Shown here piece by piece: positions 9,901-58,036 of a stretch of DNA of 64,000 nt; position 1 is the first letter of the stretch, and every line of letters begins with the position of its first letter. Under the pieces are notes generated by a model that saw only the letters and a program-made list of their open reading frames with translations, was not told the origin of the DNA and searched no databases. The translations under genes and the position numbers were made by a program. The stretch covers positions 682,001 through 746,000 of the forward strand of contig CM102289.1 of assembly GCA_046563655.1 (NCBI GenBank). The letters are read 5' to 3'. Origin of the DNA: Yuukianura sp. NJ FZ-2021. Lineage: Eukaryota.

Positions 9901-10012
9901 TGGATCAATTTCTGATCTACTTGACCTTATTTGACCTAACAACCAAAATTAAATTTTTAGTTGCTTGATTCGGTTGGTGGATTAAACACAATTAGTCAGT
10001 GACTCTACTAAG

Positions 10013-34066: not shown

Positions 34067-37045
34067 ATTTCCGGAGAACGGCAATATTTCTGCCTTTCCC
34101 ACGAAAGTGTGAGAGACACGATGATAGTTTCATCTTCCATTCTTATCTTGGTCCGCACTTTGTGTCATTTTTTTCTCGTCGTCCAAAATGTCGCCGTCGC
34201 TAATGTCGCTTTTTCTTCATCCTCCCGAAAAAAAAGTTGCAGTTCCTGCTCTCCTTGTAATTCCTTTTAACAAGATCCGCTCTCCGGTCATCGCTTCCAC
34301 CTTACGTCATTTATTTTTTTTTGTTCAATTTTTTCCTCCTATGCTGTCGCTTCCAGATTGAGTGAAATCCACTCTCCTACTCGACACGATCCACCAAAAA
34401 TCATCATCTCCTTTCTCCTCCCGCTTTTAAAGAGCGTTGTCACTGTCACTTTTTCAGACATGATTGATCATCTGACGACGTTTTTTTAAAACTCCCGCTT
34501 TTTTAAAAACTCACGTTCAGCTTTTCTTCACTTTCTTAAAAACAATAGAGGTCATTGACCTTCTGCCGTTGAGTGGAGCGGGGAACGGAAGCATCACACC
34601 TTGAAATGTGTTCAAACAGACCAAAAATCGACTTCGTTCTTCCATTCTTTAAGGAAGAAAGTGAAGAAAGGAGAAAAGAAAAGTTTTGAATTCTGCCGCC
34701 TTCTTCTTTTGTTTAAAAATGAGTCTTTTGTTGTAAAAAGAAAGTGCGCGGAAGAGTTTTCAATTCACAAGGAAAACGGAAACTACTGTGTGGAGAAAGG
34801 AGAGAAGTAGTTTCAACTTCCTCCTTTTCCAAGAGAACTTTTGATTATAAAATGTTATAATTTGGAGATCTATTTTTAGAAGGTCTATAGAAAAAAGTTT
34901 ATATAGTATAATACATTAATATAATATAATAATATAGTTTATATAATAAGACTTTAAGGAAGTTCCTAGAAGATGAGCTTTCTCTCCTGGTTCCACAATC
35001 CCCAGGAGTCTCTCTGCTTTCTCTTTTCTATCAAAAGTTTTGGGGCTCAAAAGAAGCTCAGAAAATTACTACTTTTTCAAATTTTCAAAATTAGATAAAC
35101 TTTTTTTCATTTTTAGTACTACTTTTTAGCAATTTGGGAAATTTTTAGTTGTGAGGCTATCAAAAACCACAAGATTTCGGTTAGACGCTGAAAGTTGAAA
35201 ATTAAATTTCAAAATTTTGTTGAGCCAGCACAGAAAAAAGTTTTTCAGTGGCGTTAATGAGCGTTTTAAAGAAGAATCAAAGCCTTCAACTTCAAAATAA
35301 TTATGAAAATAATGATGTCGTTTAAAAGATGAAGAAACTGAGATGAAAAGTTTGCAATTTAAGGAGATTTTTGAGTTTTCAAAAGATGGAGAGGGGATTA
35401 AGTCTGTTTTGAAATTTGGAAACTTTTGAATTTTGCCGCCATCTTGCTGTTTCATCTTTTGGAAAAGTTTGTTTTTGAAAAGGGCTTCCTGCCATTGAAA
35501 TCCTCCAACATTTTCTGTCTAATTAAGTTATGTGCTTTACCTTCGGTTTTGTCTGCCTCGCTGGCGGGAAAGTTTTCAAAACGTTTGGTTTCAAAATCTT
35601 GATTTTGAATTTGGAGAAACCGCGGGAGGATTTAAAATCCATTTTCGTCTTCTCCCGCTCTCTCGCTCTTCAAAATCTTCTTGTTAATTGCAACTTTTAT
35701 CTTGATTTGATTTTAATTTCTCAAGAAACTTAAGAACTTAAGCCTAAAAGATGAAAACTGCCTTCTCTTTTTAAAAAACAGCTTTTTTTAAAAGCTTTCT
35801 AAAAAAACGTGTTTAAAAAATGTCCTGCAGCGAAATGTTTCTGTTTGAACAAATTCTCTAATTGAGTTTTGTCTCTTACATTTTCCGTTTTTTAAAAAGT
35901 GTAAAATGGTAATTTTATTCCATGAGAAATGGCAAAAAGATAACATTTTCTTGCAGAAACAGCAAAGTACAAAAGTGGTTCATAACTCATGTCGTTTCTT
36001 TGTTCAAAATTCAAACTTTTCGCGCGCCAAAACTTTTAATAAGCTGTGCACATGGTCGGACTGTTTCTTATCAAGTTCAAAAAGTGGCGCCGTTCGTCAT
36101 TCTTTATCCTACTTTTATATTCATCTCTGGACCAAAACACAATAGCACTCTATTATAAGAAAAAGATGAAGGCATATGAAAAATGACCCACTAGTTGGTC
36201 AGAGATTACGGACTCCGTGACAACCGACGCAAAGCTGCGCACAACTCCAAAAGTAGAGTTGTGCGCAGGTTCTTTCCTTACTTTGTGCTGATGTCCAAAT
36301 AAGGTGCAGTTATCTGATTTATGGATCCGAATATTTCCCTATTTTTTCCACTTATAGATGCCAGAAAGGCGGAAATTTCAAATTCAAAATCCTGATTTAT
36401 TTTGTAATAGGAGGGAGCAACTGTGTTTTCTTTTTTCAAAATGGTCAACTTTCACTGCACTTTTTGATTTGAAAAATTTTGATTTATACCAAATTCGAAA
36501 ACGGTTCCCGCCAAAGCTACCAAAATTTACATTTCAAAATTCCCAAAATAAAACAAAACCAATTTGAATTAAAAATTTGAAAAAAGATCAAAAACAACAC
36601 AGATCCACTCTTAACCGACCACCTTAATGCACTCCTACCACTTTCCTACCACTTGCTCCACAACTCACAAACAAGTTTTAAAAAAAATGACTTTCAAATT
36701 CAACTTAGCTTGACGTCTAAAGAAAATCTTTTTTTTTTTTGAACCATTCAACATCAAAATTTGCGGGAAAAAATTTCAAATTTTGCCATCCACGAATCTC
36801 CGAGAGCAATTCTGAAACATCGTAGCTTTCGTGTTTCAGTTTTCTTTTTTCAGAAAGTACAAAATGCTCATTTTGAAAAACGCTTAAAAGGAAAAAGGAG
36901 AAAAACGATTTTCTAAAACTAGAAAACCGTTTTTTCTAAAAGTAGAAAATCGTTTTTTGAAAAAAGGAAGTGACATTGACAATTTATGAAAGTGACTTTG
37001 TATCTGGCGTTACCTGGCCGTTTGTTCCCAGAGTCTCAATCCAAT

Positions 37046-37430
37046 TGTTGTGAAGTAAACTCATTCTCCAGATTATGTTAATAATCTTTTGTTCTTTCTG
37101 CAAACTATCTGTTTTGCACATATAATCCAGTTAGAACTAGTTCTCTAAGTTAAAAATAGATTTTTAACTGTTAGTCTTTTGTTCTGTTCAAATGTAAGCT
37201 ACATTTCAATTTACATCCAAGCATTACGGCACGTGTCAGAGGCCTATAAAAAGGCTCGGCCGTGACCTCCAGACTTCACTTCTAATCCCAAACTAAAACT
37301 TACCAGAACTCTGTCCGTTCTGCGAACGGACCAGAGGTCAACAACCTAACTTTCTGAAAATAAAGTTATACTCTACTTTACTCTGCAATTTGCGAGTCTC
37401 AGCTAGCAGAAAACGATCATTTTCAGAACA
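37046..37430 (+). repeat. 5' LTR (385 bp)
   Basis: TG...CA, TATAAAA at ~37245, AATAAA at ~37359; direct repeat of 42894-43276. Confidence 0.97.
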
Positions 37431-37450
37431 TTGGTGGACGAGCTAAAACG

Positions 37451-38368
37451 ATGACCTCGACCTCCACTTCTATGAATGCTATAACTGAAACAAAACCCAC
37501 CGGGTCCGCTTCGGCGTCGACCAAGGGTTTTGACCTTAAGGCGGTGGTCCGCTCGATCCCTCCGTTTGACGGAAGGACGAACGTTGACCTGTTGACCCTG
37601 AGGTGTGATGCATTATTGGCATCAGGTGCTGTGGATAGCAATTCGCTGATCCTGCACTTCCATCAATTGATGGAAGGCGAAGCACTGGAATGGTGGCGTT
37701 GGTCACAGACCAAAATTCTAAGGGGATTGACCCCTGCCAATGCAGATACAAAATGGAATGAACTAAAATATGCAATTAGGTCATTCTATGACCCCGAAAA
37801 CGTCAAAAATGACGCGAAAAAGAAACTCAAATCCATTTTGTTTCAAAACTGTGACTCACCATCCGAGTACGTTGCTAAACGTTTGGCATGCCTCTCGATT
37901 ATTGACCCTGACATGTCAGACGAGAAGCAAGTTGAAAAACTCATCAAGGGCTTACCTTATAGCATGCGAAACATGATGACATTAGTTGACCCACAAAGTC
38001 CAGCTGAATTTTTGCAGAAAATTCGCAAATGCGAAAAACCAAACTTCACTGACAAAAGAGGTCAAAGTCAAGGTCAAACTCCTGGTCAAAGTCAAAATGC
38101 ACAATACAAAAACAAATCACATGCAAATTCTGGACAGCAATTAGACAATGGTAATTCCACAAACACAAAAGATTCCACTGTCACTGGAACTTCAGAAACT
38201 GAAGTTGACAAACAGTCCAGTTTTCGCAAACGCAAATTTTGCAGTTTTTGCAAACGAAATGGACACACACTAGAAGAATGCTACTCTAAAAATAGAGTCA
38301 AAACTGTTAGTGCTTCTTTCAGTTCTGTTGACACAGAACAAACAGAAAATGTAAATACAAAAAACTAA
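37451..38368 (+). CDS. gag: Gag (305 aa) with CCHC zinc knuckle
   Basis: IPPFDG, MEGEALEWW, LIKGLP capsid-like motifs; CSFCKRNGHTLEEC. Confidence 0.92.
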   Translation: MTSTSTSMNAITETKPTGSASASTKGFDLKAVVRSIPPFDGRTNVDLLTLRCDALLASGAVDSNSLILHFHQLMEGEALEWWRWSQTKILRGLTPANADTKWNELKYAIRSFYDPENVKNDAKKKLKSILFQNCDSPSEYVAKRLACLSIIDPDMSDEKQVEKLIKGLPYSMRNMMTLVDPQSPAEFLQKIRKCEKPNFTDKRGQSQGQTPGQSQNAQYKNKSHANSGQQLDNGNSTNTKDSTVTGTSETEVDKQSSFRKRKFCSFCKRNGHTLEECYSKNRVKTVSASFSSVDTEQTENVNTKN

Positions 38369-38411
38369 AAACACCGGGTGTATACGCTCACCCTATAGCA
38401 AAATCAGCGTA
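38359..38411 (+). promoter_or_regulatory. Programmed -1 ribosomal frameshift signal
   Basis: A AAA AAC heptamer immediately before the gag TAA; downstream GGGTG/CACCC and TACGCT/AGCGTA stems form an H-type pseudoknot; the -1 frame is open into the protease. Confidence 0.82.
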
Positions 38412-41400
38412 CACATTAACTGCACAGGATGTAAACAAATGCATCCTGGGGCAAAATACCTTAGTATTTGAAAATTCAAAATTTTCAAAAATTCAAACAA
38501 ATTATACTACTAGCGACACCTACGCTAGTAAAGTAAAACAAAATTTAAATAAAAACAATCTTACGGATTCAATTCCGGAAACTTCTGTTGAAGGAACAAC
38601 AGTACAAGTACCTTTCCGAAAATGGAGGTACGGCCCAAAGGTCTTTACCGAACTCACGTTCGGTAACCAAACATACAAAATACAAGTCGATGAAGGAGCA
38701 AACTTCAGCAGCATCGGCTTGGACTTTTTAAATGAACTCAAGGATTTTGTTCATAAGAGGTACCAGATTTGCCCAGTGTTGGTCAACACAGCCAACAGTG
38801 AAACACAAATTGATGAAATGGTTGAACTGAAGTTCACCTACAACAATGTTCTCACTGTATGGGGCTTTCACCTAATGAAAGGACTGAAGCCCAAAATGCT
38901 GTTAGGAACCGATTGGACAACTAGAAACCTCAACAAAAAGGAAATTCCAACAATTAATGAAAATGTACCTCTGAATTTGCCAAAGGCTGAGGAAAATGCA
39001 CCTCGGTTAAACAAATTCAAGTTAACAAAAACAATTAGGCTTCAACCAAAAATGAATTCGAGAATTACGGTGGAGTCTGATCGAATTATTTCAGGTTCAA
39101 TAATACTGAATCCAAACAAGAAACTCAATGAGACATATGCCTTACTCCAACCATATGTGTACTCGACAGTCAGAGACTGCTGTGCAGATATATGGCTCAC
39201 AAATCTGAACAATTTTCCTGTGACCTTATCAAAAGGCACAACAATTTGTTACGGTGAAGAATGTCCTCCTAACAAAAATTTGTATTACCTTACGGAAGAT
39301 GGCGAGACCGTCGAATCCGAGGAATGCATGATTGGAAATTTTAACCCAAAATTAGGAGATAACCTAACAAATGAGGAAAAATCTGAGATTACAAAAATAA
39401 TTAATCAATATCCAATGCTCTTTGCTGAGGATGAAACGGATTTAGGAAAAACTAGCCTTGTACGTCACAAAATTGACACTGGCGACAGTTTACCAATTCG
39501 TAGTCATCCGTACCGGGTCTCATACCCCCAAAGAAGCAAAATGGAACATTGTACTTGTGTACTTGGATGATCTTGTTATTTGGGGTAGAACCTTTGACGA
39601 GCATAAATACAGGCTGGTTACGGTTCTCAACCGACTTAAAGAAGCCGGATTAACCCTGAAAATTAGTAAATGCATCTTTGGGACAAGCAAATTAAATTAT
39701 TTGGGTCATATTATTTCTGAAGAGGGAATTCAGGTTGACCCCAACAAGACAAATGCAATCGAAAACTTCCCAATTCCGAAAAATCAAACGGATGTAAAGT
39801 CATTTTTAGGAATGTGTGGCTACTACCGAAGATTTATTCAAAATTTCGGAAAAATAGCAATACCTCTCAACACACTTCTTAGGAAAAATCAAACATTTCA
39901 ATGGGGAGAAAAACAAAATTTGGCATTTCAAACACTGAAAAGTCATTTGGTCAATAGCCCAATACTGGCTTACCCTATGGACAATGTACCCACAGAAGTA
40001 CACTGTGATAGTAGTGGGTATGGGGTTGGAGCAACCCTGGTTCAAATTCAAAATGGCAAACCCTGCGTTATTTGTTATGCAAGTCGAACTATGAACGACG
40101 CAGAACGCAACTACTCGGCTTCTGAACAGGAATGTCTGGCTGTTGTCTATGCAGTTAAGAAATTTAGACCTTACATTTACGGTACTAAATACACTGTGTA
40201 CACAGACCATAGCGCCCTCAGGTGGTTGTTTTCTGTAAAAGATGTAAACAGTCGTTTAGCTCGATGGTCGATAACCTTGCAGAACCAAGATATGACCATC
40301 GTCCATAGACCGGGGAGGACTGCCAATGACGTTGACCCATTGTCAAGGTACCCAGTTGACCCACCAGAGAGTATGGACAGTTCAGAAGTCCTTGTTCTGG
40401 ATGGAGTACCAGATTTATTTTCGAAAAAGGAATTAAAAGTGAAGCAAAGATCCGATAATTTCCTAAGATCAATTATTTTGTACATTGAATCTGAGGAGAA
40501 AGGGGAAAGTAACATCCCAAGACCAAATGTAAAACAATTGGATCAATACAGTCTCCAAGAAGGAATTTTATTATTTCCAAATTTTGCACCTTCTGGACAC
40601 CAATGGAAAATTGTACTTCCAAAATGTTTACGAAAAATCGTATTCGATTCCCTACATGCCGGAGACCTAGCTGGTCACTCGGGCATTACTAAAACTTGGG
40701 ATTTACTCAGAAGTCGTTTCTATTGGGTAGGAATGTACAGGGATACGAGAAAATACATTCTCGGTTGCCCCACTTGCCAAAAATTTCGAAAGCGAGTTGG
40801 CCCTGAATATGGTCTAATGCAAAGTTTTGACGATGTCACTCGTCCATTTGAACGCGTGGGAATTGATTTTGTTGGCCCCATAGTGACATCTAACGCTGGA
40901 AACAAGTACGCCATTGTTTTCATAGACCATTTCACTCGATACGTCGAAACACTCGCCATTCCTGCAGCTACGGCAGAGGAAGCAGTCAAGGCAATTAAAT
41001 CAAAAATCATTTTTAAGCATTCCTTGCCGAAAGAATTTGTAACTGACAGAGGACGACAATTCATTTCAAACTTAGTCAAAGCGTCTGCGCAGGAATTCAG
41101 CTTTAAACTGAAATTTACAGCGCCATATCACCCACAAGCCAATGGCATGACAGAACGCTGCAACAAAACGATCAAAAAGTCAATTGCCAAAACCGTTGAC
41201 GAAAATCAGAAAAACTGGGATTTATGTTTGGACCGAGTAACTTTCAGTTACAACATCCAAAAGCATTGTTCTACTGAATTTTCACCATTTTACTTGGTAT
41301 TTGGCAGAGAAGCTGTTTTACCAATTGATTTAGCACTGCCAAATTTCGATTCGGACCAAGAAATTGACTTGGAGAGATTACATGAAGCTAGACATGAATC

Positions 41401-42280
41401 TCAACTGAATTCTAGGAAAAATCAGGAAAAATCCAAAGCTAGAGTCGATAAAAATCGAATTAAGAAAACTTTTAAGAAGGGCGAATTAGTTTTAAGATCA
41501 AAGCCAATTATCAAGAAAGGGCTTACAAAAGCTTTTATTGCTCAAAAAGATGGTCCATACAAAATTTTAAGACAAACGAGTGATGTTAATTTCGAAATTC
41601 AGAAATTAAATTCTCGTTCTAAAAAGTTAATTGTACATGTCAGAGACATTGAGCATTTTAACTCTGAATTTGTGCCCAGCTCTGATAGTGAGAGTGAAAG
41701 TGAAAGTGAAAGTAGCTTCACTGATCACTCGAAACAGAATCATCCATCAAAAAGCCAAGGACGCTACGTGCGACTCAGAGGGAAAGAGAGAAACTGCGCG
41801 AAATCGGCTAAGTCCGCCGATTCGTCTCCCCCGAAGAAGTCAACTGATGTAAACAAACAAAATAGTCAAATTTCCTGCAGAGACACAAACTCGTCTGTTG
41901 GTAGTCAAATTAGGTCACATTCAAACAAGAAAAGTTCAAGTCACGACTTTAGTTCCAGTTATCGGTCATTGTCCGGACATTCTGGACATTCAAAGTCACG
42001 TAGGAGCACTCCTCGTGCAAAAACACAAAGTGACAGTGACAGTGCCGATGACCCCAAGGCTATAAAAGAGCCTGAGGATGACGAAGCAGTTGTCACTCCA
42101 GTTTCATCTTCATCATCTGAAGAAGAAGACCCGTCTCTTCTTGCTCCTGCCAAGCCAAAGGTCAACGACACAGCCACTCCAAGGAGAACTGGACGTACAA
42201 GGAAACCACCAGACCGTTATGGAGAGTGGATCTACTACAATGGACGTAGACGCAGAAGACCATCATCTTCGTCAAATTGA
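38365..42280 (+). pseudogene. pol: Pol (PR, truncated RT, RNase H, integrase, Ser-rich tail) with internal deletion and frameshift near 39535
   Basis: PR IQVDEGA; PIRSHPYR joins almost directly to VYLDD in another frame; RH HCDSSGYGVGA, TDHSAL; IN HHCC, GIDFVGP, TDRG, GMTER; tail RKPPDRYG. Confidence 0.92.
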
Positions 42281-42882
42281 CGAAGAAGTCTCACGTAAGG
42301 CGACTTTTGACCTTTACAGGTCATTTAAGTTCACGTCCGCACTCTCCATTCCATTCCCCAACTTCTATTTTTATTGTTCATTTCATCTCTAATATATTTT
42401 TCTTTTATTTTTCAGGTCAATTGAGGGAACTCCAGATGACACAGAGTGCCCCTTCTCCAGCCATCTCCACTTCATCTTCAACTTCCGGAACCCCCACGGT
42501 ACCATTATTGATCAATGTCAATCCGCCCGATGGGAGAACGGACTTTACGAAATGGAGAATTCCAAAGAAGACTACGCCAAAGCCAACTCCGGATCCTCGA
42601 CCAATTACCATCCGCCGACATGATAGACGACAACACAACTTCCCCAGGATGAGTACTTCATTGCCGCCTCAAACCGCCCAAGGTCAACCGAGGTCATCAG
42701 GACGCCCAATCATCGTCCTTTCCGATCCCCGTGACCTGCGAGCCACCCTAAGGTCAATGGCCCCGGAGAATCCTCCTCGTCATCGCCCAAAACCCTGCTT
42801 CATTTGCAGTCAAGTCGGCCACAAACGTAAGAACTGTCCGCTACTTCCAGTTTCTCGAAACTCAGGAGATTTTCCTAACTAA
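42219..42882 (+). CDS. Predicted spliced third ORF of the retrotransposon (~180 aa; exons 42219-42294 and 42416-42882), Pro/Ser/Arg-rich with C-terminal CCHC knuckle
   Basis: Donor C|GTAAGG at 42295 and strong polypyrimidine acceptor TTTTCAG| at 42415 are both phase 1, giving ...QIDEEVSRQLRELQM...; CFICSQVGHKRKNC; the stop lies just before the PPT. Confidence 0.7.
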
Positions 42883-42893
42883 CGGTAGGGAAA

Positions 42894-43276
42894 TGTTGTG
42901 AAGTAAACTCATTCTCCAGATTATGTTAATAATCTTTTGTTCTTTCTGCAAACTATCTGTTTTGCACATATAATCCAGTTAGAACTAGTTCTCTAAGTTA
43001 AAAATAGATTTTTAACTGTTAGTCTTTTGTTCTGTTCAAATGTAAGCTACATTTCAATTTACATCCAAGCATTACGGCACGTGTCAGAGGCCTATAAAAA
43101 GGCTCGGCCGTGACCTCCAGACTTCACTTCTAATCCCAAACTAAAACTTACCAGAACTCTGTCCGTTCTGCGAACGGACCAGAGGTCAACAACCTAACTT
43201 TCTGAAAATAAAGTTACACTACTCTACTCTGCAATTTGCGAGTCTCAGCTAGCAGTAAACGATCATTTTCAGAACA
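42894..43276 (+). repeat. 3' LTR (383 bp)
   Basis: Matches the 5' LTR except a few differences near the U5 end. Confidence 0.97.
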
Positions 43277-46200
43277 CAATATTCGAATTCCCAAATCATA
43301 AATCTCCAATTTGTTTAAATCGATCCGCCTCGAGCTGCAGTGGCGGGAAAAGTGCTTGGGCGCGCGGGAGATTCAAATTGTTTTGCCTCTACTTGGAAGA
43401 AGGAAGAGAAGTTTCCAGGTCATAAACAATGGAATTGATCTTTTAGGAGAATCTTTATGGGAGGCTACAATTCACAAATCCAAAACAACCTTATGTCGCA
43501 TACTTCCACTTTTTCAAAAAAAAAGAGACACTGAAAAAGGAAGATAGTTTTTCGGAAAAGATGATTTTTATGAGATTTGAACTTACGTTTTACTTCCATT
43601 TCAAGTTTGAGGATCAAGATCTCAAAAAATGGGTTTTAAATGTCCGATTTTTTCTGCGAAAAAGAAACTTTATGAAGATGAAATTTGAAAAAAGTATGGC
43701 TTCGGTCATACTTTTTCCGTATTCGAGATGATGACACTTTTCGATTTATTTGAAAAGGGAGAAGATGAAAAAGATTTTTTTTTTACTTTGAAGTTGAGAA
43801 TGGCTGGAAAGTGCTTCATTTTTTTTTTGAATCTGTGGAACGTACGGTTGACTTCCGCTTTTCCCGCCACCTTCGTTCGTCTTCATTTGAATCTTCCCGG
43901 GAAAAGTCCTTTTTGGCACGAAACTCAAAACTCATTTTCTCCTTTGGCTTCATTTCCGTTTTCGTGGTAGTTGGAACCTAAATGCGGTTGGACCAAAATC
44001 CAAGAAACCACTTTACTATTTCTGAATCACGCTTTCTTCAGAAATTTCCAACAAAACGAAAATTTTGGATAATCGCACTCGAGTTTCAAAAAAAAATTCA
44101 AAAAGAGCCCGGGTTTTCCCACGAATCAGGCCAAATCCCTCCCGTTTTTCGATTTTCTCCAAAAGTTGCAAAAATTCCAAATTTTCCTTTAAAAAATTGT
44201 TCTCTCAAAAACTCTTATGCTAAAAACGTTTCTAGGAGGGTAAACCTCAAGGGTGAAATTTTGAAAACGTAAATTATGTTGAGCTGCAAATTTTTAAATT
44301 TGAAAACTTTTTGAAACTGCGCATGAGCATATAATCTTTTGTTTCAAAGCTTCCGCCGCTCCCAATTTGGGAATCAATTAATAAAAGTTTCGGAGAACAA
44401 CAGACGCAGAATCTTGCTGAGCTCACCTTTCATTTTTCTTGATTAAAAGAGCCTGTTGTTTTTCCCGCTCTTTTTGCGCTCTCTCGCTCCTAAACATTGT
44501 ATCCAACGTACGAAAGTGTAGCAGTAGTTACTCCCTCCAGAACTTTCTCCTGCACTTATTCATTAAAATCTAATTGATCTCGTCTTTCATCATCCTTTAC
44601 ACACAACAAAGGACTCGATTTCCAATTATGGCTACATGGGATTACTCTGCTGGAGATCCACTCTTTTTCCGTTTTTCAAAATCTCCCGCTCTTCCATCTC
44701 TCGATCATCGATCTCTCCGCTCCCGCATTTCAAAAGCTCTCGAGGAGCTCAAATTCCACTTGTATCTCTCCTCAGCATCTGTCGACCTCTTCAAATCAAC
44801 AACGGATTGGTCCAATTTGACGTTCCCAGTTCAAATTAATCTCCCGATAGACACAAATGTTCAGGGAATTTCAAAATCTCAAATTTCAAAACTAAATATT
44901 CCGCTGAAAACTGAATTTTCAGTGAAATACATTTTCGAAACTTTAGTTTCGATTTTGTAGTAAATTCTAACAGAGTTGGGGCGAAGGGAGATTTTTTTCG
45001 GTGAAATGAGGCAGAAGTGAGATTTTTGCTACGAATTGGGGCCAAGTGAAATTTTTTTTTTGCAGGGGGAGACAAATAGGCAGAATTGCGGAAAATTTGT
45101 AAAGTTGTCAGTTTGATTTAGAGCGAGATTCTTGTGGCTAACCGCGTCACTTCAAGCGTACTATGCAGTCACTGCCTTCGTGGAATGTCGAAAGTGACCA
45201 CACTATGCTAAATGGACACCAGACAGCAGGGGTTGACTAAACCACTGAATCAGCAGATATTTGTGAATAAGGAGCGGGGATATTGGATGATACAATGTAT
45301 AAATTTGAATCCAATATTTGGATTCAGTGGTTTTCAATGAAGAGGAGCGTCGTGAAACGTGTGGATTTGTGCTGAGTCAGGATTGGAGCTAAAAAGAGCC
45401 CTGTACATGGAGAGTGACTGACTGGAAGTGGGGAGACCATTAGTCACTGTCCAAGTGGGAAGTGATGACATGAAGAAATGACCCAGAGGTCTGTCACGAT
45501 GTCACTCATGGTCAACCTAAGTCTCCAAGGGCCCCCTCCCACGAAAGGAAGTGGGGCCTTGATCTGGTGGTTCCGAGGATGAGGCAGACGTTGATGAAGC
45601 TGAGTACAATACAATTAATCCTCTCCACACAACATCAATCTAAGCTACTGGATCAGAGTCACAGCTGGCAAAGGATGCTGCGCAGTAGCATCAAGTTGAT
45701 GTATGTCGTCACAATGGCCCATGTTCTGTCACATACAAAATACAGTCACATACACTAACACGTCATTTATCTACTGACTTTATAGTCATTATGCAACATT
45801 CCAGTATTTAACATATCAGTATAGCATCCTATTTGACATGCCAAGAATGCCATGTATCACATACTTGCATATCGTAATATTCAGTATCTCCATACTGAAT
45901 CAAGTAATATTCGGTAGCCTCGTATAGACAGACCTGCCAAAAATATTTATTAAAAACCGGCAAAATATTGCCACATATTGCTATTGTCATATTCGATGAG
46001 CCCATTATATATCAAGTGTATATTTTGAATATTCCACTATTCCCTAATATGTGTAAGTGACATATCTCAATATCGCATATTTTGTGTCATTCCAATATGC
46101 CCATTTTTGTGCCTACATTCATCCAACGTTGAATATGCCAATGACGGTATGTGATTTGTCACATAATTATAGGAATGTTGTGTCACATACTTTTGAGGAA

Positions 46201-48569
46201 ACATTTGTGCATGTGTGAACTTTAAGTTGATTATAATTTAAATGACATCAAAAGACTAAATGAAATGAACCGTTTAAGGAAATTTGAAATTGGATCCAAA
46301 CCAGAACTCGTGTTGAGGTGAAATTCTTTTTGTCACTTTTTGTTCTGGTCATAAAAGCTCATGTCCACTTAAGCTCCGCTTAGTCACTGGGATTTGGCAC
46401 TAAAAACCGGATTTGAAATGGAGATCGTTGACTCTTCACTTGTACCTGTTTGACAATGACATTTCCTAAAGACTACGCATGCGTCAAGGTGTCACACTCT
46501 CTTAGTTTAAGGCATAACACTTTACCCAAGTATTTGTCATTTTACTCCCAAGTACTTTTCAACTGATCACAATCACCCAGGCAGAACAGAAACAGGATCT
46601 ACCAGTGTCCAGAGTTCTTGTTCCTCCAAAGGCAGTTTTTGGTAAAGCTTAATTTCAAAAAAAAGTTGATGCGTTATGTTTTTCATTCATTTGTGACTGT
46701 TTTTTTAAAAGTTTTGTACTTTTGTACCACGGTGTACACCTTGACGCCATGTCACACGCTGTGATACAAATGGACACTCCGCATTGTTCTTTTTTATTCT
46801 TCTCTTATGCATTTACACCGTTTTAATTTGAAGTAAAATCTATAGGGGGGCTTTTTCAAAATTTCAAAAAAGAAAAGTCATTTCAAAACCCAGCTTTTTC
46901 CAAATCCGGACTTCCGCTTATGATAATTGAATTCACATTGGATTAACAACGATTGAAAAAAATGGGTTGTCTAAAAACGTAGTTTTTAAAAAAATATAGT
47001 TTTTGAAATTATCAAAAAATGAAAATAAATTCTTAACGAATTTGTGCTTGTAATGTTATGTTTTTTGGAGAACTTTTTAAAAAGATTTGGAAAGTTTGAG
47101 CTGGTTTTAGCATACAAATTGGACACGGAGCTTCCTTTCCAGGAGATAACTTTTGGCACGGTGTTTGGCTTGGTGCTCGTTAGCTTTTTTTGAGTTTATT
47201 TTTTCAAAAAGTGTTTTTTGAAACCGAAAGACAAAAGAAGCAGTGGGCTAATGGTTACGAATATTTAGAGAAGATGGAGCTCATTAGACTGAAGGGATTA
47301 ATCGAATATCGTTAGTTGTGCTGCTCTGCTCCTCATTAATTCTGAAAAGCTCCAGAGAAAGTTTCCTAACAAAAAAAATTTCTTGAACTCACTATGAGTT
47401 TTCAAAAAAAAAGCCTGAGAAACAAAAAATATTTTTGTTTTTTGCCAGAAACCGAGAAAGTAATAAGCAGGAATTGGAGAAAAACTGGCAGGAATAGTTT
47501 TGTGAGAGAAAAGCTCAATTTTCGCTCTACTTTCTTCTCTTCCATTCCAAATGTACCGCATGGTCCATAATTCTCAAACAGAAGATCCTGAAACCATAAA
47601 CCCATTTGTTTTATACCTCTTTCAAGATACTGGGGAAATGTCTATGTACATTGAAGTTGTACATGTCTATACTCTCCCAAAGTTCAAACTATCGTTTTTC
47701 CTGTGTTCCACAATAAAATATTGCCGGAAAAAGTGGACCAAGCTGTACATTGTTGTTGGAGTTGTGGAAATGGCAAAAGTTGAGCCTCTTCTGATCTTCA
47801 TCTTGGTTGTGCCTGTGCCTCTTAAGGTCTCTCGGGTCCAATTTCCAAAGGACAATTTTCCAAAAGCTCCTTTGCCCTACTTTCTCCCGCTTCTTTTTTT
47901 TGAAAATCCCGGTTCTGCCAAAATTTCAGTTCAAATTTTCCATCTCCCGATAATGAGAGAATGTGATTATATTACCACAAAAGCGTTTTTGAAAAACATT
48001 TGTCTGAAATTTGAAAATGAGGACTACTATAAAGGTAGAAAAGTCATTGAAATTGAACTATAAAGTACACATTTAAAATTGCACAAAAGGAAAGTGACAT
48101 GGCAGTGAAAGTTTATAACAAGAATTGAAGTTTGTGCGTATGTAGTATGGCTGATTTTGAAATTCCGGAGAAAGCGCGGGAGTTTGAAACTGGAATTAAT
48201 TAGTGTCAAAACGGCCACCGAAGCTGACACAGATGGGAACAAATAATTAATTGGCATCACACACAATTCTATCATGTTCCATCACTTCCTTCGCTCTTTG
48301 TTATGCTAAATCCATTTGTTTTCATAAACAAAACCAAAAACATGCGGTAACTGTCGTTTTTGCATAAAATGTGGGTACACCTAGCCATAACCTATGCAAA
48401 TATCAGAAACAATACAAATGTTACAAAGTATTACAAATATTACACAATATTCCACAAATATCAAAGGAATCACATACCACCGGTACTATGGAGGGATATT
48501 AGTAGCAAAACTAATTAAACTTTCCCCCGTCAATTAAAGTTTCCCCAATTAAAAAAGTTAATTTTCGCC

Positions 48570-48950
48570 AATTTATTAATTGGCGTAAACTTAATTGGCG
48601 GAAAGTTAATCGGGGAAATTTTAAACGGCGAAAAGTTAATTGGGGGGAATTTAAACGGCGAAAAGTTAATTGGGGAAATTTTAAACGGCGAGAAGTTAAT
48701 TGGGGAAATTTTAAACGGCGAAAAGTTAATTGGGGGGAATTTAAACGGCGAAAAGTTAATTGGGGAAATTTTAAACGGCGAAAAGTTAATTGGGGAAATT
48801 TTAAACGGCGAAAAGTTAATTGGGGGGAATTTAAACGGCGAAAAGTTAATCGGGGAAACTTTAAACGGCGAAAAGTTAATCGGAGAAACTTTAAACGGCG
48901 AGAAGTAAATTGGGGAAACTTTAATCGGCGAAAAGTTTACGTTCCCCCAA
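48570..48950. repeat. 30-bp minisatellite (TTAAACGGCGAAAAGTTAATTGGGGAAATT)n, left arm, ~12 copies
   Basis: Direct reading; made of two related 15-bp half-units. Confidence 0.95.
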
Positions 48951-50591
48951 TAAACTTCATTCGCCAGAAATGCCAGGTGGTGTAATGTTATGGTAGTAAA
49001 AAATGATATAGGGATACGGGCCCGAGTTCGAATCTCGCTAAGGATGTTATTTTTTGTGTTCCAATTAATTTTTAAAATACAACCATCAATTTTTTTATTG
49101 AATGCCATATTAGTAATGATAATAATAATAATAATAATCATCTCTATATATAAAATCGAGACTCTGTTAATCTGTGTCTTTGTCCTGCTACTCCTCCGAA
49201 ACTACTGTACCGATTTGGACAAATGAGGTGTCTTTTTCATCGTGAGGTCACCCCGAAGAGCACTGGTGATGTCGCATATTGACCCGTGACCTTGGACCCT
49301 TGACCTTGCGCGGTGACCTCACAAAATCATACCAAGCACAAGCAAGTGGCATGCTATTCTAAAGCAGAGGTCAAATGGAGTTGATTTGTGTATGACATAT
49401 CGACCTATGACCTTTGACCTTTGACCTAGGGCAGTCACCCCATAAGAAGTATACACAAACATAGGCATGTGATATGTCATTCGAAAGCGGAGATTCAGTG
49501 GAGTAGACCTTGACCTTTGACTTATCGCTACGGCGGCAAAATATATACTTTTAAACATAAAATATTTTAATATTTAAAAAAATATTTGAGCAAAAAAGGA
49601 AATCAAAAATATTTACGAAAATTTTAAATTATAAAAATCCTTCATTTTTTGGCGATTTTTGAAAAAAATCAAGAAATTAGCATGATGTTTTGCCAATTTT
49701 TGAAAAGAGCTTGAAAATTAGATGGCTTATTATGATATCTTGGCAAAAAGTTTCACTCCGAAAAACAGTGACGTTTTTCTTTTGTGCGAATCTTCTTTTG
49801 TAAAGGTTTTCTCTAAAAGAGAGTATGAGATTACACTCTGTCTTCCGAAGTAATTGAGTAAATCGCTAAATTCATGGAAATTTCGGACCTTATTTAACGC
49901 AAATTAAACTTTCTTCGCGATAAATCGTACCCATTTTAGTAAATATTTAGATACATATTTTTTTTAATATTAAAATATTTTATGTTTAAAAGTTATATAT
50001 TTTGCCGCCCTAGCGATAAGTCAAAGGTCAAGGTCTACTCCACTGAATCTCCGCTTTCGAATGACATATCACATGCCTATGTTTGTGTATACTTCTTATG
50101 GGGTGACTGCCCTAGGTCAAAGGTCAAAGGTCATAGGTCGATATGTCATACACAAATCAACTCCATTTGACCTCTGCTTTAGAATAGCATGCCACTTGCT
50201 TGTGTTTGGTATGATTTTGTGAGGTCACCGCGCAAGGTCAAGGGTCCAAGGTCACGGGTCAATATGCGACATCACCAGTGCTGTTCGGGGTGACCTCACG
50301 AAGAAAAAGACACCTCATTTGTCCAAATCGGTACAGTAGTTTCGGAGGAGTAGCAGGACAAAGACACAGATTAACAGAGTCTCGATTTTATATATAGAGA
50401 TGATTATTATTATTATTTTTATCATTACTAGTATGGCATTCAATAAAAAAATTGATGGTTGTATTTTAAAAATTAATTGGAGCACAAAAAAAAAAATAAC
50501 ATCCTTAGCGAGATTCGAACTCGGGCCCGTATCCCTATATCATTTTTTACTACCATAACATTACACCACCTGGCATTTCTGGCGAATGAAG

Positions 50592-51065
50592 TTTATTGGG
50601 GGAACGTAAACTTTTCGCCGATTAAAGTTTCCCCAATTTACTTCTCGCCGTTTAAAGTTTCTCCGATTAACTTTTCGCCGTTTAAAGTTTCCCCGATTAA
50701 CTTTTCGCCGTTTAAATTCCCCCCAATTAACTTTTCGCCGTTTAAAATTTCCCCAATTAACTTTTCGCCGTTTAAAATTTCCCCAATTAACTTTTCGCCG
50801 TTTAAATTCCCCCCAATTAACTTTTCGCCGTTTAAAATTTCCCCAATTAACTTTTCGCCGTTTAAATTCCCCCCAATTAACTTTTCGCCGTTTAAATTCC
50901 CCCCAATTAACTTTTCGCCGTTTAAAATTTCCCCAATTAACTTTTCGCCGTTTAAATTCCCCCCAATTAACTTTTCGCCGTTTAAAATTTCCCCAATTAA
51001 CTTTTCGCCGTTTAAAATTTCCCCGATTAACTTTCCGCCAATTAAGTTTACGCCAATTAATAAAT
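50592..51065. repeat. 30-bp minisatellite, right arm (inverted), ~15 copies
   Basis: Reverse complement of the left array with about three extra units. Confidence 0.95.
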
Positions 51066-53793
51066 TGGCGAAAATTAACTTTTTTAATTGGGGAAACTTT
51101 AATTGACGGGGGAAAGCTTAATTAGTTTTGCTACTAATATCCCTCCATACGGTACCAAATTTGAACAAAAAATTTGTCAACCAAAATTTGAGACGTTAAC
51201 AAAGATATGATTGAGAAAAAATCAAAATTTGACTAAACTTTACATTCAGTACACTTTTTAAAAGCGTATTTTTGTGTATTTTTTTGCATTTTGATGTGAA
51301 AGCGAGTGTAAATTGAATTAGAAGTTGAAAATTTTGAAAGAGTTGTACCGTGCGTATTCGGTTTTTGATTGGGCTTGACTTCTTAGCGTTTTCTAAACTG
51401 TTGACGTGACTGTTAATCTTGATCTGCAAATAAATGGGAGGGAGTCAGTTCCGCTAAAATTCAAAAAGTGCAAAATGCACACACATGCAAATTTCCTTTT
51501 AAGACTTTAACACAAAACTGAGATCGCGTGTTGTTTGAAGGTATTGACTCAAACCACCACATACTAATGTGCATGGGGAGTCGTTTTCAGTGTAACTTTT
51601 CAAAAAAGCTCTTTTTTCTAAAAAAAAAAAAGTAAAAACGAAAGAAACCTGTGGAAAGGGCCAAACGACGGATTAATGCTAGATCACCACGAAATGGCCC
51701 ATAAAGCCAAATGAAAAAAAAAGTAAAAGTTTTTGTGTTGATTGTGTTTCCAATTCCTCTACTTTTTTTTCTCGTTTTTCTAAAACTATACTTAAACCCA
51801 AAGTCTTTTACTTTTTTACAACCTTGTTTAAGCCCACTCAGCACTTTTACAATGGGGTTTCAAAAACTATCACAATGAAATTAGGCTTTTACAACCTTCA
51901 ACCAGTTAAAACACTCTGATTTCAATTCATTCTTTTACACCTGCGCAGACAAGACACAGTTTTTACTCTTCTGCGCAGCATTCATACTACTCTGAACCAA
52001 ATTTTTACAATGCCAGGCAACATTCCTACTATTCAGCACAAAATTTTAAGGAATTTGCTCAGATGTTTTGTGGATTTTCGAATTCAGTGATGATAAAATT
52101 TTTTCGTCATCTTCAAATTTCTGTGTTTTTTTTAAATTCACCAAATTCGTTCTCGGTTTTTGAAAATTTTTGTTGTATTTGGTGTAGTGGCGAAGCTATG
52201 GAAGTTATTGCGTTGTTTTTTCACTTTTAAGTTAGGTTTTGTTTGGCGTTATGTTGGATAAGGTTAGTTTTAGATTCGGCTAGGCTGGCAAAAGCTAGTT
52301 TTACGTTAGGTTTTGCTGGGAAAAGTTAGTTTTTTAGTTAGTTTCCGGTAGACTTTGATACATGAATCGAGCGGAGCGCTTTTATATCCCAATTTCGTTA
52401 GTTTTCTTTAGGTTAGTTCAGTTATGTTAGTTTTTGGGAAGAGTTAGAGTGGCGTTATAAGGAGAGGGACAGGAAATGAGAAAAGTGTCAGCATGAGATT
52501 CCGTTGGCCTCAAAAACACTACGTACAGGGTCCATGGACTGCCTGGAAATGAGGCTGGGAGCGTAACGTATTGCCGCACAGGGACACTTGAGATTTTACC
52601 ATTTTGAAACAGAGCGCCATTCCAGCTAGGAAGTGTGTCGCGGGATACTGAAAAGCACTAGTACTAGTCTAACCTAACGTTAGCCTAACAAAACCTAATG
52701 TAAAAAACCTAACTTTTGTAAGGGGGACTCAAGGGCCCTGGCCTCCTCCGGGTCCCTTATCCTCTTCAAGGCTCATAAACGACCTCATGGCTCTTTAAGA
52801 TCAAGGGATTAGTCATTTAAAAAATTTAGACTTTTTGAATTTCCCGCCTTAATCTCTCCCTCTTCAGTCCGACTACAAAATACAATGACTTTGGGAGAGG
52901 AACGAGCAGAGATGGGCATAAAATGGAAAGTGATACGCAGGGTCATAAAAATTCTTGTGCCCAACTCTGTGTCTCTTCAATTCCCAAACGTACCAGTAAT
53001 TAACTGTACATCCAATTTAAATTTCCCGCTTTCCAATTTTTCAAATTTTAAATTTCCCGCTCTCCCCTCTACCAAACTCGTGCTAAAAGAAAAGGGAGCT
53101 GGAAATTAGAAAAGCTAAGCATAGTGTGAAAAATTGTTTGTCTTGTTTTAAAAATTTAAAAAAGCGGGAGATTTTCAAATTAGGCGGGAATTGGAAGTTT
53201 GAACATAAGAGTTGTGCAATTAATCAGACTACGGAGAGACATAACGGGCGAAGGAACGAAGCAATGGCGCGGAAATTTTGACAAGTGGAATGTGGATGAC
53301 TAAAAAGAAAAGAAAAAAGTTTGAGTCATCCCGCGCTCTCCTTTCAAAACTTTTTTTTGCGTATTACCCCCACTTGACTGACTTTGGTGTAGAAAAGACA
53401 ACAAAGACAAAGTAAACTTTTGAAAAAAAAACGAGTATAAAGCCCAATTTATACTTTTCGTTTCCCTGACGTTGCCCAGGAAAAAGTTTGTCGTAGGCGT
53501 CTATAACAACGGAATTTAAAACACAAACGTAATGAAATTTTTATTAAAATAGTGAACTACGACAAACTTTTTCCTGGGCAACGTCAGCGAAACGAAAAGT
53601 ATAAATTGGGCTTAAGGAAGAAAAGAAGAAAAAAGGAGCAGATTCTAATAAAAAAGTTAAAGAACAAAGAAAGTCTAGAAACATTTCTCCTTTTTTCTTG
53701 CTTATTTCAGCGAGAAAATTTAAAAGTTTGTCAGATTCTTTCTGTCCCGCCAAGTTTTGAATTTCGTTTCACAAATTTTCTGTTTCAGCTGAA

Positions 53794-55188: not shown

Positions 55189-58036
55189 CTAGTTCGCTCT
55201 AGGTTGTCTTAATTCAATCCAATTGGATCTGTGTATTATTCTACGACTACATTTAGTTGAAATCCATGTTGCAACTTCTGTTAGTAGAAGTTTCAATTCT
55301 GTGCGAAATTTGTTTCCGAGAATTGCGTAGAGGATGAAATTGAGAGCAGAATTAATGAGTATGGGGAGAGAGACAATTGTGGCTGCAACTTCAGGCTCCA
55401 CTCCCTTCAGAATAAAGTTGAGTTCCAGTGCAGCAGCCAAGGAGTTAAGCAGGATGAACACAAACACAACTGAAAGCAACATTCTGGTTAGGGAACTGTC
55501 ATGAGCAGTAGTGTGTGTGGTTGCAGTAAGGCGCCGCTCTCTCGCTGCTTTGGTTACCTTTAATATAACATCAAAAAACACATTTTACTCCTTTAGTTTT
55601 GTGTTTTTTTTATAACCGTTGTTTTAAATTTACCGCCTTAATGATGAGTATGTTGAGTGTGACGATGGTAACAAAGGGAATGAAGTAGATGCATGTATAC
55701 CAGAGCAGTTGCTGGTACATGATTTGGTAGAATGGAAATCTGTGCAACTGACGAGGAAAACTTCTGCTCCACTCGGTAGACGATGCTTCGTAGCTCCATT
55801 TTACAAATTCCAGCCAACGCGGTAAATTTAAAAATGTTGCAAATCCGAATACTAGCAGTGTGTAACGTCGTGTCTTGCGTAATGTAAAAATTGATGATAC
55901 GAGTAGTGGCTGCGAAATCGCTACAAAGCGCTCCACCGTAACCAAAATCGTCATGAGTACCGATGCTGTATACACTGTTGAAAAAGTGTTAAATAAATAA
56001 TATAATATCGTTTATACATATGAACATACATATTTTAAATGTATTATGAATATTTCGTCCTAAGCTTAAATACTTACTTGTTTTGTTAGTTGGATACGCG
56101 ACATATCCATTCATATTTGAGCGCCGGAATTTTTCATGAAACAAATTGCCGAATTCCTCCGAAGTAACGAACGTAGTAATCAAGTACATGGAATCACAAC
56201 ATGTGAGTCCCAACAGAAGTATGCTTGTTGAGCTGCGCATTGCTCTGCGCATGAGCACAACGAACGTCAAGCTGTTACAAATGAGTCCAATACCACAAAT
56301 GCAGTAAACAAATACCATGTACGTGTAGTAAATTTGTAATAACAACGTTGAAGTTATTTCTTCTTCCGAGAATCCATGTAATTTCAAATGACGTGCAATC
56401 CTGTACTCTTTCTTGAGCCAACGATCATACTGGACTTCGTTCAACCGGTAACCATCTGTCTCGTTGAAAGTAAACCATAGTGACTCGTCCTGGTCATATG
56501 TAAAAGTGTTGGCGGAAAATGTGGTGTTGAAAATTGATTCTATGACTCTTTTAAATTGAGTTGTGACCTTTGCTCTGACGCGGTTGACAGGTATTTTGAT
56601 GATGATTGCCTGAGGTCGTTGCTTTACAAATTCCAAAAGCAACCGTTGAGACAATACATCCTCCATATTCATCGCTACTTGCTCTACATGTGGAAAAATA
56701 CTGCCAATATTGTCCAAAATTGTGTCCTCAATTGAGCACCCCTTGAACGACAAATATTTCAAACTTGACAAAGGCTGCTCTGGTAGCATTTTGACTCTAA
56801 CGTCAACAAATTGCAAATGTAAGGTTTCTAGTGATCTCAATTCGGGTGACCCCAGGTCAACTACTGGACACTCTTCTTCCAAATACTGACAGTCGATGGA
56901 CAGAGATTCCAATTCATGGATTTTCAAAATAGCATCTAATGTAGTGTTCCACAAATACGAATTGAATAGTTGAAGTTGTCGAAATTGTTTGGATAAATTG
57001 AAAACACCGAGGTCAAGGTCACCAAAGGTCACACTTATCTCCTGTAGTTGGGTGAACTGTTGTATTAACTGAGGAGGAGCCGAGTTGTAGCGGAAACTCA
57101 ACGATTCTGTTTTAATGTTGACTAGTGATTTGGCGGGAAGCATTGCGACGTCAATTGCTTCAGGAGCTTTGCTATAAATCTCTAGATTTTGAAGGACCAT
57201 AGCAGATTCCATAAGTTGTGATATGGAGCCGCCCATGATGTCACTGTACCGCAAGTCCAAAGTTTTGGTAAACGTCAAATTTATTAACTTCACATCAATT
57301 GTACAAAACACTGCGGTGAACGTTTTGAACATTGGGATCATGCTGTAAAGCAGTCTCCAAATGGTATCATCTCTAATCTTGGTTACTGTCAACCATGAAT
57401 TGCTCAATACGAAGTGTCCGTCTAGGCCAACAAAGCAAGAAATGTAAAAATTCAAATCCTGGAGGACAGTGGCTATTCCGGCTCCTCTGCTTTCATTTGT
57501 GTAAAAGAACATGAATGACTCTACTGCTTCGCGGACGTTCCAATCATATCTTGAACCATAAATTTGCTTGAATTCGAAATTTTTCAAATTTGGAAGGTAA
57601 ATGTTTTCGACATTCGTTTCACTTTTCCACTCCCACTCTACTAAGGCCAACTTCAAAGTTATCAAATTGGTACAATTGGTTAAAAAATTTGCAAGTGTGG
57701 ATCTTTTCACTCGCACCCATTTCAATTTCACTTCCGTTATTGCACACTGCCCATCCACTGCTAACATTTTCTCAACTTCGTCGAAATCCTCCAGAAAAGT
57801 TCTGTTTCCTTCCAGTAATATTTTATTTTCCTTCAAAAATTAAAAAAATGTGCAATTCTTTCGTTTATAAATAATTAGACACTCTTATATTAATCTACGT
57901 TATATTATGTTATCTATACATTAATGTATATTTTATGACCCGGTGTAGCCAACTTTGAGGTACTTACGGTGACGTATCTTTCGGCCTTCGCCTCTGAAAC
58001 AAGCAAAAATATGAATAAACTGATGCACAAATTCAT
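55189..58036 (-). CDS. Class A GPCR (FMRFamide-receptor-like 7TM) with a long LRR-like extracellular N-terminus, ~843 aa. Exons 58036-57968, 57830-56078, 55974-55634, 55557-55189
   Basis: Phases are compatible (2532 nt). Signal peptide MNLCISLFIFLLVSEAKA; LxxLxL repeats; GIGLICNSLT, LLGLTCCD, VTVERFVAI, LNLPRW, IPFVTIVTLNILI, INSALNFILY, KFR. Confidence 0.88.

Follow-up and report, generated by a model that had tools for sequence, protein, structure and literature searches.

A zinc-knuckle open reading frame after pol in a Ty3/Gypsy-type retrotransposon of Yuukianura sp. NJ FZ-2021, a putative clade-specific accessory gene

The element and its third open reading frame

Analysis of a 64,000-nucleotide stretch of the genome of Yuukianura sp. 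NJ FZ-2021 (assembly GCA_046563655.1, contig CM102289.1, positions 682,001 to 746,000 of the forward strand; hereafter the window, whose first letter is position 1) revealed a Ty3/Gypsy-type long terminal repeat (LTR) retrotransposon of 6.2 kb, located on the + strand between positions 37046 and 43276 and harbouring a third open reading frame (ORF3) at its 3′ end. ORF3 looks like a genuine third ORF of the element, and the presence of a small ORF with CCHC (Cys-Cys-His-Cys) zinc knuckles after pol is, as far as the sequences can tell, a trait shared by the clade to which the element belongs.

A first-pass annotation of this DNA, made from its letters and a list of open reading frames, had recognised a Gypsy element here, and the parts of such an element were indeed all located, namely LTRs, target-site duplication, primer-binding site (PBS), polypurine tract (PPT), gag, and a pol with the domain order reverse transcriptase (RT) - RNase H - integrase, which is the Gypsy order (Table 1). 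In particular, the Pfam matches of the second pol frame comprise RVT_1 (residues 33-90), RT_RNaseH (153-280), Integrase_H2C2 (392-449) and rve (465-563), together with Integrase_p58_C. The two LTRs show 98.45% identity (388 columns), and the 5′ LTR contains what we take to be a TATA-like box (37245-37254) and an AATAAA signal (37359-37364). The word TTTTCAG is found at the end of the 5′ LTR (37420-37426), 24 nt 5′ of the gag ATG, and again in the 3′ LTR (43266-43272); the former resembles the spliced-leader (SL1) acceptor ahead of the initiator ATG of Cer1, a Gypsy/Ty3 element of Caenorhabditis elegans, and its acceptor score is ordinary, being equalled at 29% of window positions.

Most of the RT is deleted from this copy, which is therefore defective. 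Positions 146-205 of the RVT_1 profile are present and positions 1-145 absent, and the alignment with the relatives P0001 and P0003 shows a gap of approximately 140 columns at which the frame changes (39440-39570). In the first pol frame (38332-39567) no Pfam family, protease included, was detected at E ≤ 0.01, while the relatives P0003 and P0004 possess protease families; only the end of this frame aligns with the N-terminal part of P0001 and P0003. The copy is young yet defective: having lost its RT and retained 98.5% identical LTRs, it was either recently damaged, or is non-autonomous and was moved in trans. A second copy of the element is absent within the window.

The second pol frame ends at a TGA (42278-42280). 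This stop is a natural one, as the final motif conserved in pol is aligned with the very C-terminal end of P0001, a relative with 50% identity. The possibility that ORF3 is a frameshifted tail of pol was rejected on the same ground, pol stopping where P0001 stops, and inspection of 42250-42280 by eye showed no slippery heptamer at which translation could shift by -1 from pol to ORF3. Where the tail of pol encodes a Ser/Glu repeat, a run of GTGAGA/GTGAAA hexamers (41688-41712) has the phase that would join pol in frame to ORF3 via position 42416.

The third ORF that had been described at the env position, ending in a CX2CX4HX4C knuckle and with its TAA just 5′ of the PPT, is present as described. 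Its frame is open for 210 codons (42250-42882), with the stop one base ahead of the purine tract. The product deduced from ATG 42436 contains 17.6% Pro, 11.5% Arg and 10.8% Ser and has an isoelectric point (pI) of 11.6, and the highest Kyte-Doolittle mean over 19 residues of the 148-residue product is 0.58, from which no membrane-span-like stretch is apparent; the characterization of the product as Pro/Ser/Arg-rich and not Env-like thus agrees with both composition and hydropathy. The frame 42250-42879 was kept open in just 1 of 20,000 mononucleotide shuffles, and the shorter frame 42436-42879 in 72 of 20,000. Outside the element, frames of at least 200 codons are confined in the window to one gene and two tandem-repeat frames. 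The ORF3 region has 52% GC and 33% C, the remainder of the element being at approximately 40% GC, and the codon-usage log-likelihood is +4.0 for the ORF3 frame vs -23.4 and -19.9 for the other frames. Protein language-model neighbours of ORF3 belong to retrotransposon gag/CCHC clusters, with scores not exceeding 0.80, and are taken as a lead only.

Other origins of the frame were tried and discarded. Derivation of ORF3 from the gag knuckle of the same element was rejected, the matches between the two reaching knuckle level only. Of the conceivable gag-ORF3 fusions, that via donor 37603 has the wrong phase, and that via donor 38151 is in the right phase and depends on a weak site (score 2.1).

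Table 1. Features of the retrotransposon and of the third ORFs in its relatives. Coordinates are those of the window, except for L001, L002 and L004, where they refer to the respective locus.
Feature	Coordinates	Strand	Remarks
Target-site duplication, left copy	37042-37045	+	4 bp, identical to 43277-43280
5′ LTR	37046-37430	+	TG...CA
PBS	37432-37443	+	First 7 bases common to L001 (130), L004 (4577) and L003 (4594)
gag	37451-38368	+	305 amino acid residues (aa), one CCHC knuckle; Pfam Retrotrans_gag, E 4.8e-07
First pol frame	38332-39570	+	Protease region and RT start; stops at internal RT deletion
Second pol frame	39446-42280	+	RT remnant, RNase H, integrase (Pfam), Ser-rich tail
Candidate exon 1	42219-42294	+	Frame open 42066-42392, overlaps pol end
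Candidate intron or spacer	42295-42415	+	GTAAGG...TTTTCAG; 121 nt, 34% GC, 69% pyrimidine, 45% T
Acceptor-like pyrimidine tract and CAG	42399-42415	+	20 nt 5′ of ORF3 ATG 42436
ORF3 from own ATG	42436-42882	+	148 aa; TAA 42880-42882; position of clade-specific CCHC ORF
ORF3 zinc knuckle, CX2CX4HX4C	42796-42837	+	Aligns with first knuckle of relatives
PPT	42884-42893	+	Directly abuts 3′ LTR (42894)
3′ LTR	42894-43276	+	AATAAA at 43207-43212; right target-site duplication at 43277-43280
L001 ORF3	5188-5535		116 aa, two CCHC knuckles
L002 ORF3	4790-5134		115 aa, two CCHC knuckles
L004 ORF3	9582-9743 and 9747-9935		Two pieces, frame break between; two CCHC knuckles

A CCHC open reading frame after pol in related elements

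A pol alignment search yielded 188 relatives in metagenome contigs, and the best 80 of the 188 were used for locus comparisons; the candidate pol relatives in viral and prokaryote contig collections were pattern matches only, none of which was confirmed. When the 80 loci were searched with ORF3 by tblastn, most matches fell on gag knuckles upstream of pol. Three loci, L001, L002 and L004, which at 45-48% pol identity are the closest ones with DNA beyond pol, have their match downstream of pol, in small ORFs with two CCHC knuckles each (Table 1). The L004 element is decayed: its pol is split over several frames (9340-9560), a frame break (9744-9747) separates the N-terminal part of its ORF3 from the knuckles, and an LTR pair is not detectable. 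The contig of L003 (44% identity) ends 119 nt after pol, which is too short to judge the presence of an ORF3.

How restricted the trait is was counted over the 33 metagenome loci with a pol match extending to query residue 600 or beyond and with at least 600 nt of downstream DNA. Four of these 33 loci (L001, L002, L004 and L042) have a CCHC motif beyond the end of pol on the pol strand, and that of L042 is a gag knuckle on a contig whose ends repeat. No downstream CCHC was found in the other 29, which include several near-duplicates of one another and 21 of which have at least 900 nt downstream of pol.

The ORF3 proteins of L001 and L002 are homologous to each other (E 6e-20, 38% identity), their pol proteins being 56% identical, and the ORF3 of the relatives exceed the curated cut-off of the Pfam zf-CCHC family (42.9, 33.5 and 32.5 bits). 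A profile built from the ORF3 rows and run against 5.8 billion clustered proteins recovered no proteins other than the ORF3 of L001, L002 and L004 or pieces of them. The first-pass annotation had called for a phylogeny of RT and integrase to place the element, and a quick maximum-likelihood tree of pol (36 rows) now does so: {window, P0001, P0002} and {P0003, L001, L002, L004} form one clade, with a value of 99 in the Shimodaira-Hasegawa-like approximate likelihood-ratio test (SH-aLRT). P0001 and P0002, which share the subclade of the window, have 50-58% pol identity to it. Within this clade the ORF is present in all four rows with known downstream DNA, namely the window, L001, L002 and L004. 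The case for homology between the window ORF3 and that of the relatives is built on their common clade, position, strand and size class and on the knuckle.

Acceptor-like signal, candidate intron and rival explanations

The site TTTTCAG/G at 42415/42416 is the top-scoring acceptor-like site of the whole element, and an equally good acceptor within 30 nt upstream is found at just 0.8% of window positions. A pyrimidine tract followed by YAG (Y, pyrimidine) lies 0-20 nt ahead of the ORF3 ATG in 4 of 4 elements, at 0-7 nt in the relatives; the background fractions for such an acceptor-like site within 30 nt upstream are 0.008 (window), 0.122 (L001), 0.006 (L002) and 0.070 (L004), on a score that was defined after the sites had been seen. 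It is the place of these splice-like words that is unusual, not their existence. In L001 (197) and L004 (4623), moreover, a GTAAG lies between PBS and gag ATG, for which the GTAAG densities give a chance of approximately 0.15 and 0.07, respectively. This is the place of the major splice donor in retroviruses, and a leader donor combined with an acceptor ahead of a 3′ ORF is the retroviral route to a subgenomic mRNA.

Among retrotransposons, the third ORFs of LTR elements are typically expressed from spliced messages (PMC5408684), and two sources hold in general terms that ENV and ORF3 derive from such messages (PMC10309623, PMC5408684). In Cer1, the ORF downstream of pol encodes the C-terminal half of the protein CERV (PMC10309623); the latter is described as the product of a spliced, partly SL1-trans-spliced 2.4-kb mRNA and as required for the export of genomic RNA (PMC10309623, PMC3315495). 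The recurrent acceptor-like signal fits the production of ORF3 from a spliced subgenomic RNA, a reading suggested by the recurrence of the acceptor at the ORF3 ATG, by the leader donors of L001 and L004, and by the precedent of CERV.

Taken together, the evidence tips slightly towards ORF3 being a real accessory gene of a small animal Ty3/Gypsy clade, translated from ATG 42436 on a processed subgenomic mRNA and encoding a nucleic-acid binder. The acceptor 42415/42416 would be used to make this mRNA, as is the case with retroviral env and Cer1 cerv; translation would most likely begin at ORF3's own ATG 42436, and the message would end at the poly(A) signal of the 3′ LTR. For the 5′ partner of the acceptor there are three candidates: the local donor 42294/5, a donor within the R-U5 leader, and a spliced leader.

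A number of results weigh against this interpretation. The pol tree comes from a quick search only, and the contigs of the relatives have one name prefix in common, which limits their independence as samples. Among the 5.8 billion clustered proteins the ORF3 body had no homologue, and the 13 matches of ORF3 among 1.84 billion representatives cover the knuckle only. In direct comparisons of the window ORF3 with those of the relatives, BLASTP aligns the knuckle alone (E 2e-4 to 4e-4), hhalign aligns 23 columns with a probability of 39%, and for the part ahead of the knuckle, of 5,000 shuffles 363 reached the observed maximum score and 538 the summed score. The window ORF3 possesses one knuckle and those of the relatives two, and its knuckle scores 19.8 bits (E 0.0008) with Pfam zf-CCHC (PF00098), the curated cut-off being 20.8. 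AlphaFold predicts, at low confidence, mostly coil both for the window ORF3, with a mean predicted local distance difference test (pLDDT) score of 55 and one helix at residues 99-108, and for the L001 ORF3, with a mean pLDDT of 45. The intactness of ORF3 tells little of selection because it is seen in a single, RT-deleted copy. As for splicing, the word TTTTCAG is not enriched in the window (40 occurrences vs 34.8 expected from dinucleotide shuffles). The leader of the window element, from PBS to gag ATG, measures 19 nt and has neither GTRAG (R, purine) nor a consensus donor, and the transcribed part upstream of the acceptor contains GTRAG at 41688 and 42295 only, so that a local donor is favoured over a leader donor; the donor scoring matrix was not trained on the host.

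The local donor is the basis of the best-surviving alternative, which is nonetheless improbable. It is the model put forward in the first-pass annotation: a two-exon ORF3 starting at ATG 42219 (or 42240), from which the intron 42295-42415 is removed while the unspliced genome keeps it, with a product of approximately 180 aa, to which exon 1 would contribute the N-terminal 26 residues. Every sequence feature on which that model was built was found where it had been placed, including the ATG 42219 in another frame overlapping the pol end, the GTAAGG donor (C/GTAAGG at 42294/42295), the pyrimidine-rich interval and the strong acceptor, which is the best in the element; the phases match, with one base before the donor and two after the acceptor forming one Arg codon, and the junction peptide can be read as quoted. 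The interval thus combines GT-AG borders, a pyrimidine tract and phase compatibility. Its donor falls within the top 1.1% of 3,372 GT sites of the window and is one of the two GTRAG just mentioned; GTAAGG also occurs directly after a Pfam-matched exon of a host peroxidase gene (by eye). The interval is sharply AT- and T-rich relative to its flanks, and its length lies inside the host intron range of approximately 70-250 nt (by eye). Given 5 GTRAG per 6.2 kb, the chance of one in the right phase within the 135 nt between pol stop and acceptor is estimated at about 0.03-0.04. Finally, the exon 1 peptide is the best non-knuckle tblastn match of the L001 ORF3 in the kilobase (9/17 identical, E 0.028), with 71 of 5,000 composition-preserving shuffles attaining its maximum score, and when 2,811 six-frame pieces were compared with the N-terminal profile of the relatives, the one from frame B came 5th.

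Against the two-exon model stands the layout of the relatives, in which the ORF3 ATG follows the pol stop by 21-68 nt, the spacer in the window being 155 nt, and leaves no space for an exon and an intron. The similarity of exon 1 is borderline: the frame-B profile match has an E of 9.9 and is outscored by four unrelated pieces, the summed score of exon 1 was matched by 1,385 of 5,000 shuffles, and in each of the three relatives the motif concerned can also be aligned with a stretch of exon 2, which makes its assignment ambiguous. The ATG 42219 is a by-product of Tyr-Gly codons in the conserved end of pol. Removal of the intron alone would leave the start codon approximately 4.8 kb from the 5′ end, so that an upstream splice or internal start would be needed, and there is no strong acceptor between 41242 and 42410. 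Pairs of GTAAG and TTTCAG at this spacing are at chance level in the window (GTAAG-N90-120-TTTCAG, 2 vs 2.05 expected), and the openness of the interval in the ORF3 frame, which 4,021 of 20,000 shuffles reproduced, is uninformative. The splice-site conservation that had been proposed as a check is accordingly divided, the acceptor-like signal recurring in L001, L002 and L004, and the local donor and exon 1 not. The same division applies to the spliced subgenomic RNA that had been postulated: acceptor recurrence and the CERV precedent speak for it, but the specific version with ATG 42219, donor 42294 and a 121-nt intron has no counterpart in the relatives.

A more far-reaching possibility, and a decidedly unlikely one, is that this Gypsy lineage evolved a regulator similar to Rev or CERV from a nucleocapsid-type knuckle: a small, disordered RNA binder made only from spliced RNA, which would recognise the unspliced genome and choose between export or packaging and splicing, with the short retained intron at the pol end as the switch. 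Spliced RNA would then make the regulator and intron-containing RNA would be its target, and the recurring hydrophobic-then-acidic stretches ahead of the knuckle might serve as docking motifs for host factors.

It is also conceivable, with slightly less weight still, that the ORF3 frame is a decaying or chance-open remnant without present function, perhaps a degenerate form of the two-knuckle ORF3. The copy is already defective through its RT deletion, the composition of ORF3 is unlike that of the rest of the element (52% vs approximately 40% GC, 17.6% Pro), a second knuckle is lacking, no homology is detectable outside the one knuckle present, and the codon-usage support for the frame (+4.0 vs -23.4 and -19.9) is weak. 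However, a frame of 148 to 210 codons is improbable by chance, as the shuffles indicate (72 and 1 of 20,000), the 98.5% LTR identity leaves little time for decay or for the opening of a new frame, and knuckle, ATG, acceptor and stop at the PPT are intact and in the expected order.

The chances are slimmer for a third alternative, in which the acceptor 42415/6 takes a trans-spliced leader and the ORF3 mRNA begins 20 nt 5′ of ATG 42436, the gag-proximal TTTTCAG being used likewise. The two TTTTCAG sites of the element each lie 20-24 nt 5′ of an ATG, in the relatives the ATG follows YAG by 0-7 nt, and Cer1 mRNAs are reported to be SL1 trans-spliced at an acceptor ahead of the initiator ATG (PMC3315495, PMC10309623). 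This reading holds only if the host trans-splices, and the only hints as to the host are a weak Srx-type match and an animal haem peroxidase. A nematode host, suggested by TTTTCAG counts relative to a mononucleotide expectation, was rejected on the basis of the dinucleotide shuffles and of the host introns. The host acceptors identified by eye are TTCTAG, TTCCAG and TTTGTAG, and Rfam detected no SL RNA family in the window, the sole match being a tRNA. The gag-proximal site also scores low, since 29% of window positions equal it within 30 nt upstream, and a good donor sits 121 nt upstream of the ORF3 acceptor. Such an upstream donor normally converts an outron to an intron.

Finally, an in-frame junction of ORF3 to pol, by a donor in the run from 41688 or by C/GTAGAC at 42245/6, giving an integrase-ORF3 fusion in place of a separate protein, is very improbable: both leave one base of a pol codon and so correspond to the acceptor phase, but a phase match is a one-in-three chance, both score below 2 on the donor matrix, 41688 lies within a 6-nt coding repeat, and in the relatives the ORF3 ATG comes after a stop, the ATG of L004 being directly preceded by an in-frame TAG.

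The remainder of the window contains an animal haem peroxidase gene (10348-13654, + strand) of at least five exons, with introns of approximately 70-250 nt by eye; their donors read GTAAAT, GTAAGG and GTTATA and their acceptors TTCTAG, TTCCAG and TTTGTAG. A fragment of a rhodopsin-family seven-transmembrane (7TM) receptor (55192-57839, - strand; 7tm_1 E 2.7e-08, Srx E 1.6e-06) adjoins an open frame of 616 codons, in which leucine-rich repeats are weakly matched. Two arrays of a 15-nt unit (30-nt super-unit), 48516-48995 and 50564-51122, are inverted relative to each other, lie approximately 2 kb apart and produce artificial long frames on both strands. The only Rfam match in the window is a tRNA gene (23307-23376, - strand; RF00005, 34.2 bits).

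Putative function and comparison with known systems

Under the favoured reading, in which ORF3 is an accessory gene expressed from its own ATG, the protein probably binds nucleic acid, because the one module that can be firmly assigned to its basic, disordered chain is a knuckle of the nucleocapsid type. The element's own RNA would be the most plausible ligand, and by analogy with CERV and nucleocapsid the protein may act on the fate of that RNA, i.e., its export, packaging or chaperoning. The splicing of the message, the choice of start codon and the function of the product are here inferred; what the sequences show directly is the ORF with its knuckle, a position specific to the clade and an acceptor-like signal that recurs among the elements.

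Extra genes of LTR retrotransposons are few and, beyond env and CERV, almost uncharacterised. If the interpretation is true, ORF3 would represent a second, independent retrotransposon case of retrovirus-like 'complex' gene expression and would offer a very small, tractable protein for studying the handling of unspliced RNA. In terms of annotation, family libraries miss ORF3, the body of which has no Pfam match. In open-access full text, no account was found of a Gypsy element with a CCHC ORF downstream of pol, nor of the two-knuckle ORF3 of L001, L002 and L004.

Among the closest counterparts of ORF3 are these two-knuckle ORF3 proteins (P0134, P0135 and P0136 of L001, L002 and L004), which belong to the same pol clade, share the start of the PBS, the position and the strand, and are likewise small and basic, with an alignable first knuckle and following residues and an acceptor-like signal before the ATG. 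They differ in their length of 115-117 aa, in being Lys/Val-rich with a pI of 9.0, in having no candidate intron, and in showing no significant similarity beyond the knuckle. Gag nucleocapsid (PF00098) likewise presents a CX2CX4HX4C motif in a basic, disordered context, but ORF3 is encoded separately after pol, is additional to the gag knuckle and has no capsid-like part. With retroviral and errantiviral env, ORF3 has in common an acceptor just ahead of a 3′ ORF, and L001 and L004 have a leader donor as well; unlike Env, it has, judged by hydropathy, neither a signal peptide nor a membrane-span-like stretch, and it is far too small for a fusion glycoprotein. Ogre elements of legumes are Gypsy elements that keep a spliceosomal intron in the genomic copy. 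The Ogre intron interrupts gag-pro/pol, whereas the candidate described here lies after pol, ahead of an accessory ORF.

The premise of the first-pass annotation that third ORFs of Gypsy elements are typically env-like proved too narrow, since several non-env ORF3 types are described in PMC5408684. The ORF3s of the bdelloid rotifer elements Vesta, Juno and TelKA and the aORFs of plants comprise, as described, GDSL esterase, DEDDy exonuclease, coiled-coil, transmembrane and env-like types, a knuckle type not being among them, and the terms 'zinc' and 'CCHC' have no occurrences in the main text of the rotifer ORF3 and plant aORF papers.

A further comparison is with CERV. According to PMC10309623, CERV is made from a spliced subgenomic mRNA, the unspliced RNA serving as genome and gag-pol mRNA, and the same arrangement is proposed here for ORF3. 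The absence of homologues beyond close relatives, the fast divergence and the cysteine-rich region reported there for CERV are further points of likeness. In contrast, CERV is described in the same source as a protein of 517 aa encoded by five exons, three of them in the gag frame, with three predicted folded domains (H, M and G), whereas ORF3 has 148 aa (approximately 180 with the proposed exon), is predicted to be mostly disordered, carries a CCHC knuckle and has no evident gag-derived exon. Both size (148 vs 517 aa) and predicted disorder argue against ORF3 being a member of the CERV family. Non-env ORF3s and spliced accessory genes of LTR retrotransposons are already known from CERV and from rotifer and plant elements.

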